Source of the DNA: an uncultured Pseudomonadota bacterium
Lineage (GTDB): Bacteria; Pseudomonadota; Alphaproteobacteria; RF32; CAG-239
Reading direction: 5' to 3'
Assembly (NCBI GenBank): GCA_949295025.1
Contig: CASFJK010000002.1
Location: 21,372-85,371 of the forward strand
DNA: 64,000 nucleotides
Under the pieces are notes generated by a model. That model ran no database searches and was not told where the DNA came from. It saw only the letters and a list, made by a program, of their open reading frames with translations. A program made the position numbers and the translations under genes. Below, one piece after another: positions 57,229 to 58,626 of this stretch; position 1 is the stretch's first letter; every line of letters begins with the position of its first letter.

Positions 57229-58626
57229 ATGGGAATTAAAACGATGGACTTTTTTAGTGGAAATAAATTGTTTGGAGGACAGAATAATAAACCTCAAAAT
57301 TCTTCTGCAACTACACAAAATCCGAATCAGAATCGTCAGCCTATTGCCATGGGACAGCGTCCGATGCCTCGTCCTAATATTTCGAATCCGACATCTAGTG
57401 CATCTCCAGCGCAATCAACAGCTCCATCTGTTTCTCAGCAAACTGTGGCGTCTAAGACACATGAGAATATGACTCCGACTCAAAATTCTGCTCAGAACAT
57501 ATCTCAAAATCAGCAAAAGTCGGAGAATATTCAAAAATCTGCGTCAGCACCGGTTGCGCCTCAGTCAACGAATGCTTCTCAAACCCAAACTCAGCAAACT
57601 GTCAAAGAGGCTTATGTGCAACCCAAACAACAAAATGTTTCTGTTGGAGATGCTAAAGAAGCAGAACAGTTGGGCTTGATTAACGAAGTTAAGTTTTCAG
57701 ATGTTTATGTTACTCCAGATAAAAAATGTTATATCTGGAGTGGAAGAACAGACTGTGGTTTGAAATGTGTTTCTTTTCAAGATTTTCCAGAGTTTTTGGA
57801 AAAGATGGAAAGTTTGTTTGATGGGAATAGAAGTTACTTGCTTAATTATCATGGCAGAAACTATCGTGTGGAAAGAACCATTGCCTTAGAAGGACCTCAA
57901 TATTGTGCACGTAAAATGCCAATTGAAGTTCCTGATTTGAAACAATTAAATTTTCCAAGCGGTGTTTATAGCCATTTATTGTCAATTGCTGGATGCAGCG
58001 GTTTGATTCTTTTGGCCGGAGCAACCGGATCAGGTAAAAGTACAACAGTGTCTGCTCTTTTGAAAGAATATTTGGAAAGAAAAGGTGGATACGCATTTAC
58101 AATCGAAGACCCGATTGAAATGCCTTTAGATGGTGTCTATGTTACCAAAGATGGAGAATTGGGGCTTTGCAAACAAACTACACCTCCAGATGGTTTGTGG
58201 GAAGAAGGTATTAAGTCTGCTCTGCGTTCAAAACCACGTTATATTTATTTAGGTGAGATTAGATCTCCTGATGTTGCCAGTGAAGCTTTGCGTGCGGCAA
58301 CCTCCGGACACTTGGTTCTATCTACCATTCACGCAAACAATGTGAGCGATGCTATTAACGCTTTGGTTAAATATGCAGCTTCTAGTGGTATTTCAGAGGA
58401 AATGGCTTATGAGTTGGTGGCTAATGGTTTCTTAGGATGCATTCACCAAGTATTGGTCGGTGCTCCTAAGCGTGCTATTTTGACTTATCTGTTTGCAAAT
58501 CCGGATGTGAACGCAGGTTGTCAAGTACGTGGAATGCTTCGAAGTGGTAAGTTAAATATGGCAACGTTGATTGATCAACAACGTGTGAAATTAGAGAAAA
58601 ACTTACCAATTTTCAGCCGCCTTTAA
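57229..58626 (+). CDS. PilT/VirB11-family secretion ATPase with an N-terminal Q/N/S/T/P-rich low-complexity extension
   Basis: C-terminal ~300 aa carry Walker A GATGSGKSTT, the Asp box FTIEDPIEM, Walker B RYIYLGEIRSPD and the His box SGHLVLSTIHA. The first ~150 aa are low-complexity (QNNKPQNSSATTQNPNQNRQP...). Confidence 0.7.
   Translation: MGIKTMDFFSGNKLFGGQNNKPQNSSATTQNPNQNRQPIAMGQRPMPRPNISNPTSSASPAQSTAPSVSQQTVASKTHENMTPTQNSAQNISQNQQKSENIQKSASAPVAPQSTNASQTQTQQTVKEAYVQPKQQNVSVGDAKEAEQLGLINEVKFSDVYVTPDKKCYIWSGRTDCGLKCVSFQDFPEFLEKMESLFDGNRSYLLNYHGRNYRVERTIALEGPQYCARKMPIEVPDLKQLNFPSGVYSHLLSIAGCSGLILLAGATGSGKSTTVSALLKEYLERKGGYAFTIEDPIEMPLDGVYVTKDGELGLCKQTTPPDGLWEEGIKSALRSKPRYIYLGEIRSPDVASEALRAATSGHLVLSTIHANNVSDAINALVKYAASSGISEEMAYELVANGFLGCIHQVLVGAPKRAILTYLFANPDVNAGCQVRGMLRSGKLNMATLIDQQRVKLEKNLPIFSRL

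Follow-up and report, generated by a model that had tools for sequence, protein, structure and literature searches.

To which machine does a lone PilT/VirB11-type ATPase belong when it is encoded among ordinary chromosomal genes and preceded by about 140 residues of low-complexity sequence? The question is posed by an open reading frame (ORF) of 465 aa in a 64,000-nucleotide stretch (hereafter the window) of contig CASFJK010000002.1 from an uncultured alphaproteobacterium. An earlier note on this DNA had described an orphan secretion ATPase whose N-terminal PAS-like domain was replaced by a prion-like extension rich in Q and N. In our reading, the gene probably encodes a retraction ATPase of the BfpF type, that is, of type IVb (T4b) pili, which carries an accessory disordered tether. 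It is a real gene with a real disordered extension on a recognisable, known kind of motor, and not a new system. Residue numbers are those of the 465-aa ORF (counted from 57229), and feature positions in the window are collected in Table 1.

The motor core and its relation to BfpF

The secretion-NTPase identity proposed earlier was confirmed by a Pfam T2SSE (PF00437) score of 100.5 bits against a cutoff of 24.9 (E 1.1e-28) and by the presence of all four motifs, Walker A, Asp box, Walker B and His box. Across 85 homologues these motifs are invariant or nearly so, with their key residues invariant, and many other core columns do not vary either; judged from these sequences, the core is under strong constraint. 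An octapeptide near the C-terminus, QVRGMLRS, aligns with the AIRNLIRE motif of PilT, both Arg and the hydrophobic positions being kept, and its R434 and R438 are invariant.

Residues 146-465 reach a predicted local distance difference test score (pLDDT) of ~90 in the AlphaFold2 (AF2) model, where the N-terminal domain, likewise at pLDDT ~90, is built of strands between residues 158 and 229 and a helix at 186-195. Foldseek aligned 320-340 columns to complete chains of PilT (2ewv, 3jvv), PilT4, PilU and DotB (6geb) with E ~1e-21, so the tail stands before, and is additional to, a full two-domain motor. As modelled, the protein is a PilT/VirB11-superfamily ATPase with a complete protomer (N2 plus C-terminal domain, CTD). 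The supposed replacement of the PAS-like domain is contradicted by this intact fold, by the whole-chain Foldseek match and by an alignment to BfpF that starts at residue 148. With respect to the domain boundary, structure prediction thus upholds the disordered extension but not the loss of the N-terminal domain, the fold starting at residues ~146-148.

Within the superfamily, the closest relationship is with BfpF of the bundle-forming pilus (BFP) of enteropathogenic Escherichia coli (EPEC). A translated search of 72,556 plasmids returned bfpF genes as the best full-length annotated relatives (35-36% identity over 97-98% of the core, E 3e-45). BLASTP against BfpF of EPEC E2348/69 gave 35% identity (E 1e-51) from the first core residue to the C-terminus, BfpF residue 14 pairing with residue 148 of the ORF, and this match scores roughly twice that to type IVa (T4a) PilT. 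Among loci of the family, BfpF was matched with E 4e-47 vs ~1e-11 for BfpD. The catalytic residue of BfpF is E167 (bioRxiv 10.1101/2020.05.28.120931); E297 aligns with it and is invariant in the family.

Curated NCBIfam models were also compared. The PilT/PilU model TIGR01420 scores 110.4 bits against a cutoff of 319.1, and BfpF itself, with 129.7 bits, shows the same sub-threshold pattern. Scores for VirB11 (47 vs 250 bits), DotB (75 vs 463) and TraJ (82 vs 368) are below the respective cutoffs, as is that for the TadA-type model TIGR03819 (43 vs 373 bits; the CpaF match in PDB reaches only E 8e-9), and the ComGA and GspE models fall far below theirs. Distant family members also reach no curated NCBIfam cutoff, and the family is therefore uncurated. 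An assignment as anti-phage defence protein was rejected, PADLOC giving only a P-loop-level match to mad8 (26 bits over 50 residues).

Table 1. Positions of the ATPase gene, its parts and other features in the window
Feature	Position	Strand	Remarks
ORF flagged in the earlier note	57229-58626	+	465 aa, N-terminal MGIKT included
Likeliest true coding sequence (CDS)	57244-58626	+	460 aa, begins MDFFSGNKLFGG; ATG 57244 is M6
Conserved N-terminal tip MDFFSGNKLF	57244-57273	+	family pattern M-x-[FLI]-[FL], then S/G/D and K
Disordered hypervariable Q/N/S/T/P-rich linker	57274-57669	+	from pLDDT and tail divergence
Internal motif YVQPK	57613-57627	+	residues 129-133, ~20 residues 5' of the folded core
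PilT/BfpF-type N-terminal domain	57670-57927	+	residues ~148-233, begins LGLINEVKFSDVY
C-terminal ATPase domain	57928-58623	+	four motifs and AIRNLIRE-like motif
Walker A GATGSGKST	58018-58044		G264-T272
Asp box TIEDPIE	58099-58119		T291-E297
Walker B YIYLGEIR	58240-58263		Y338-R345
His box SGHLVLSTIHAN	58303-58338		S359-N370
AIRNLIRE-like motif QVRGMLRS	58522-58545
tRNA-Val	56831-56906		upstream of the ATPase gene
Upstream spacer	56911-57243	+	tRNA-Val terminator-like hairpin 56911-56941, then ~300 nt with several inverted repeats
Terminator-like hairpin directly 3' of the ATPase stop codon	58634-58659	+
Two-piece (circularly permuted) tmRNA	22441-22774	-	tag ANDNNVAPVAMAA
Tandem paralogous CitMHS-family transporter genes	13386-16213	-	447 and 449 aa
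ORF with signal-peptide-like N-terminus	54049-55386	-	445 aa
ORF with signal-peptide-like N-terminus	56145-56720	+	191 aa

The disordered N-terminal tail

Translation most likely starts at ATG 57244 (M6, MDFFSG...) rather than at 57229, to judge from the sequences compared. The M6 column is at least 90% conserved in the 85-sequence family alignment, homologues begin at M6, a Shine-Dalgarno-like GGGAA lies 8 nt 5' of this ATG, and the database protein P0001 (460 aa) is 100% identical to the CDS. The tail itself has the hallmarks of coding sequence, with 142 open codons where the other frames hold 1-13 stops (3-13 in four of the five) in DNA of 42% GC, and its reading frame has survived many indels across more than 100 homologues.

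The low-complexity disordered extension that had been reported is accordingly genuine: besides being in frame and coding, it shows pLDDT <50 over residues ~10-122, and a second AF2 model, of a short-tail homologue, is disordered in this part as well. Residues 1-150 contain 16% Q, 12.7% S, 10.7% N, 8.7% T and 8.7% P, and are also A-rich. In comparison with the homologue P0002, the core is 97% identical and the tail, interrupted by indels, 45% identical. Near-identical strains differ from the window by two non-synonymous and no synonymous substitutions in the tail, vs none and 11 in the core. On these comparisons, evolution is very much faster in the tail than in the core.

All tail-bearing homologues share one plan: a short conserved tip, then 50-250 residues of hypervariable sequence, polar or rich in proline, and finally a core that starts (L)G(L)IN(E/D)V(K/N)FSD(V/L)Y. 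The tip pattern M-x-[FLI]-[FL] is carried by 68 of 84 dereplicated tails, compared with 8% of background ORFs, and the tips of one further clade (clade 3, see below) read MLFSKK, MFFSSKP or MxxPKPPKLF. Close to the core, where pLDDT climbs to 56-62 at YVQPK, a second pattern, [YF]-x-[RQ]-P, is found in 20 of the 84 tails vs 2.0 +/- 1.4 in shuffles, its clade 3 version being RYARPK. A role of the tail in localisation, as suggested earlier, may be envisaged and is compatible with these data.

Genomic context, pilus clusters and alternative readings

More than 100 close homologues were recovered (cores 56-97% identical, 320-518 aa), nearly all of them from metagenome-assembled Alphaproteobacteria, and a scan of one genome per GTDB species yielded 137 relatives. 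The 80 of these 137 loci that were listed all come from gut, rumen or faecal metagenome-assembled genomes (MAGs), e.g. Candidatus Scatocola faecipullorum and entries under the names Acetobacter or Azospirillum sp.; the host is an alphaproteobacterium of gut or rumen. The family falls into four clades with cores ~50-56% identical to one another. Tails are carried by 111 of 120 members of clade 1, to which the query belongs, and by 16 of 17 members of clade 3; the ~320-aa proteins of clades 2 (core 53-56% identical) and 4 never have one. One clade-1 sublineage is tail-less: its locus L006 has in-frame stops 5' of an ATG that occupies the position of L148 of the query, and keeps the U32-peptidase neighbour despite the loss of the tail. 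Tail-bearing and tail-less orthologues of one clade have cores 75-97% identical. In a rumen/colon MAG (L071), the ATPase gene is duplicated in tandem (1325-2410, 361 aa, and 2429-3520, 363 aa), each copy having a short tail of ~50 aa with the motif MSSA(A/E)LLK(R/K)E.

The location between a tRNA-Val gene with a hairpin-rich spacer, upstream, and a U32 peptidase gene, downstream, is as described before. Terminator-like hairpins follow both the tRNA and the ATPase stop codon, and on these grounds the ATPase gene appears to form a monocistronic unit of its own, without the U32 peptidase gene; its own promoter presumably lies in the spacer, where an Rfam scan of the tRNA-ATPase interval matched the tRNA alone. 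This neighbourhood is not general in clade 1. A U32 peptidase gene is found within 10 kb in 19 of 88 loci and is the next gene downstream in 8. Housekeeping contexts of at least seven kinds occur, and the most widespread neighbouring gene cluster is present in 22 of the 88. A conserved operon partner was sought by clustering the ORFs of these loci and rejected, none being shared by more than 25%. In one abundant clade-1 species (that of P0027; L101 8167-9849 and 13352-21290, L102 likewise), the gene divergently adjoins an HD-GYP-type (HD_5) gene and lies ~2 kb upstream of a Mu-like prophage (Mu transposase, TniB-like, GemA, Mor).

Pilus genes appear in the sister lineage. In three lineages of clade 2 the ATPase gene is near a pilus cluster: it adjoins one in L090, lies ~8 kb away in L093, and in L096-L100 follows the last pilin gene at a distance of ~1.6 kb, downstream and on the same strand. 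The cluster comprises, in order, TcpQ, a secretin, PAP_PilO, an unknown gene, a T2SSE ATPase of 549-591 aa, T2SSF and one to three Bundlin/PilS pilins, an arrangement that follows bfpG-B-C-U-D-E. Compared with EPEC, the products of L096 match BfpA (pilins, E down to 4e-14), BfpG (TcpQ, 7e-17), BfpB (secretin, 2e-60), BfpC (PilO, 1e-22), BfpD (549-aa ATPase, 1e-104), BfpE (T2SSF, 3e-69) and BfpF (320-aa ATPase, 8e-47). Complete BFP-like clusters extend over about 1500-15900 in L096-L100, 11152-20966 in L090 and 18566-20957 in L093, with a TrbC-like gene upstream. Common uncultured gut Alphaproteobacteria thus carry a T4b pilus cluster resembling that of an organelle otherwise best known from enteric pathogens, and it may matter for colonisation.

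Within clade 1, three tail-bearing loci (L039, L030 and L050) have prepilin genes near the ATPase gene, encoding the same N-terminus GRSM(V/I)EMLGVLAI(I/V)GVLS, and in Pfam the pilin of L039 exceeds the cutoffs of both PilS and Bundlin. T4b pilins are thus present in at least some clade-1 organisms. Together with the BfpF lineage and the BFP-like clusters near sister orthologues, these prepilin genes speak against the description of the ATPase as a functional orphan. We infer retraction activity in the source organism, and likewise a pilus cluster elsewhere in its genome.

It is poorly understood by what means a type IV pilus machine recruits its retraction ATPase and exchanges it for the extension motor. 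As we picture it, a BfpF-like motor, presumably a hexamer, would act on the cytoplasmic side, at the base of a machine like that of the bundle-forming pilus, and would depolymerise the pilus by hydrolysing ATP. In this lineage of uncultured gut Alphaproteobacteria the motor has gained a disordered N-terminal tether of ~140 residues whose sequence drifts freely while the tip (M-x-F-F...K) and the YxQ/RP motif are conserved. By inference only, tip and internal motif may bind a partner, at the membrane or at the base of the pilus, and so dock the motor there; such docking would raise the local concentration of the motor or regulate its access, the gene being no longer within a pilus operon. A more specific version is that the tether recruits the retraction hexamer to the T4b cytoplasmic scaffold, e.g. 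to the PilM/GspL-like domain of a PilO2/BfpC homologue or to the BfpE platform, and lets it compete with the extension ATPase; this is a tentative proposal, which we regard as possible rather than probable. If true, it would represent an undescribed control of pilus retraction by short motifs, arisen where bfpF became unlinked from the pilus operon. The tail is optional within the family, suggesting that the tether modulates the motor rather than being essential, and the occurrence of tail-bearing and tail-less orthologues with such similar cores in one clade makes its contribution directly testable.

Several observations weigh against a tethered retraction ATPase of the BfpF type. As had been noted for the adjacent genes, pilus, type II (T2SS) and type IV secretion system (T4SS) genes were absent, in this case from the entire window as searched by tblastn and by Pfam analysis of its ORFs, and at ~85 clade-1 loci no pilus gene was found in the 10 kb around the ATPase gene except in the three pilin cases. 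The cluster-linked examples all come from one sister clade and possibly share ancestry, so they are not independent, and the clade-1 gene could be a paralogue that has taken on another role. As for the tether, the tip reaches a pLDDT of only ~50 in both AF2 monomer models, with no confident docking or helix; it is rarely the most hydrophobic stretch, containing the most hydrophobic 7-mer in 8 of 127 tails; and the [YF]-x-[RQ]-P pattern was chosen post hoc, after inspection of the data. A search for BfpE-like T2SSF proteins gave, among the matches listed (at least 67% identity), candidate genome links only to the sister-clade ATPases P0324, P0334 and P0348 and none to clade 1, which is not evidence of absence.

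These points leave room for a repurposed, stand-alone PilT-like ATPase that has left its pilus system and drives or regulates something different (e.g. another type IV filament such as Tad, DNA uptake or a process without filaments), its tail providing a new partner specificity. We consider this rather unlikely. The variety of housekeeping contexts, the lack of a neighbour shared by more than 25% of the 88 loci, the apparently monocistronic gene and the near-confinement of tails to clades without cluster linkage would all suit such a protein. Against it stand the end-to-end homology with BfpF, the conservation of R434 and R438 in the AIRNLIRE-like motif and the bundlin-type prepilin genes near three tail-bearing members; moreover, the tail-less clade-1 sublineage keeps its U32-linked context, which points to a single orthologous function, the tail being optional. 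Genes for PilT located away from pilus operons are common.

It is also conceivable, if improbable, that the tip does not bind a protein partner but is a weak membrane-targeting peptide, six of which, on their long tethers, would by avidity keep the hexamer at the inner membrane. In the tip, a pair of neighbouring aromatic or aliphatic residues precedes a Lys, and the tip is somewhat more hydrophobic (mean Kyte-Doolittle 0.0 vs -0.8) and more basic (charge +0.65 vs -0.16 per 11 aa) than the remainder of the tail; N-terminal starts of the MGLF/MxFF type occur in known membrane-binding amphipathic helices. However, the conserved part of ~4-10 residues is too short for a clear amphipathic helix, AF2 predicts none, and the low count of tails in which the tip is the most hydrophobic segment argues in the same direction.

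A prion-like Q/N domain driving aggregation or phase separation of the motor, possibly as a eukaryote-like trait of an intracellular bacterium, appears very improbable. The tail is disordered and, with 27% Q+N, is near the top of the family; but the family averages 16%, other tails are rich in P/A or S/T or else acidic, and that of the query, apart from its proline, has ~13% charged residues. The Michelitsch-Weissman criterion for a Q/N-rich prion-like domain reportedly demands at least 30 Q/N per 80 residues; the query tail has at most 26, and 0 of 121 family members reach 30. Nor is the extension kept among orthologues as a Q/N-rich one, its sequence and length being hypervariable outside the tip. 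Correlations of tail composition with GC, for which core amino-acid composition served as proxy, were uninformative because the core is too conserved to act as one. Q/N-richness is, from the sequences at hand, a peculiarity of the sublineage and not a conserved prion-like property. The intracellular lifestyle also finds no counterpart in the exclusively gut, rumen or faecal origin of the related genomes listed, in the flagellar genes nearby or in anything else found in the window.

Hardly tenable is an artefact in which translation begins near residue 148 and the extension is an untranslated leader, an idea prompted by the existence of tail-less 320-aa orthologues whose ATG start falls exactly at codon 148 (57670-57672, the L of LGLINEV), here TTG, and opposed by the open frame, its maintenance through indels, the conserved N-terminal Met and tip and the GGGAA preceding ATG 57244. 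A purine-rich AAAGAAGCAGAACAG stands just 5' of this TTG codon, and an internal start there, giving a tail-less isoform beside the full-length protein, is conceivable from the sequence.

Surroundings in the window and known counterparts

The window is ordinary chromosome, with genes for SHMT, a Mur ligase, Fmt, a GlmM-like mutase, ThyX, AlaRS, RecA, GatAB, SppA, Lon and HU. Its two-piece tmRNA fits an alphaproteobacterial host, and two CitMHS-family transporter genes are found in tandem. The 445-aa and 191-aa ORFs of Table 1 are N/K/Q-rich, have no significant Pfam match and are conserved in the same position in the near-identical strain L001. The tRNA-ATPase spacer (window 56890-57243) varies between relatives. 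Two exact copies of the 20-nt tRNA-Val 3' end are present ~240 nt apart in L009 (9538-9557/9777-9796) and L011 (9397-9416/9643-9662), and strain L001 has, upstream of 10001, an extra segment of ~100 nt with a degenerate tRNA 3' end and a terminator copy; the spacer of the window has only the tRNA's own 3'-end copy. These repeats look like att-type duplications left by a small element inserting at the 3' end of tRNA-Val.

Among known motors, BfpF is the closest, sharing with the query the core of ~320 aa, the same motifs including the catalytic Glu, and 35% identity. It differs in having only ~13 residues before the core, where the query has ~142 disordered residues with a conserved tip, and in being encoded inside the plasmid-borne bfp operon, whereas the query gene is chromosomal, apparently monocistronic and unlinked from pilus genes in the window. 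PilT and PilU of T4a pili have the same two-domain fold and ATPase motifs and an AIRNLIRE-like motif with both Arg, and like the query they lack N1 and zinc-finger domains; however, identity is limited to 22-25% with a sub-cutoff score, and the query has a family-specific insertion, GLCKQTTPPDG, in addition to the tail.

Tethering of a motor of this superfamily is known from GspE/EpsE of the T2SS, in which an N1E domain and a flexible linker attach the N2-CTD hexamer to the cytoplasmic scaffold GspL. The N1E is a folded domain of ~90 aa, while the query has at most a short linear motif; the parallel is one of analogy only.

A disordered extension on a hexameric motor is less unusual than had been supposed, a precedent being class II CpaF, the Tad motor of Caulobacter and other Alphaproteobacteria, whose intrinsically disordered region (IDR) of 79 aa at the N-terminus is absent from most orthologues (PMC12019362). 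Removal of this IDR decreases the frequency of pilus extension and retraction and does not lower ATPase activity (PMC12019362). Like CpaF, the query family combines a PilT/VirB11-like motor, presumably hexameric, with an optional N-terminal IDR. CpaF differs in belonging to another ATPase subfamily, in having a three-helix bundle after the IDR and in being bifunctional; the IDR of the query is the longer of the two and ends in a conserved N-terminal tip.

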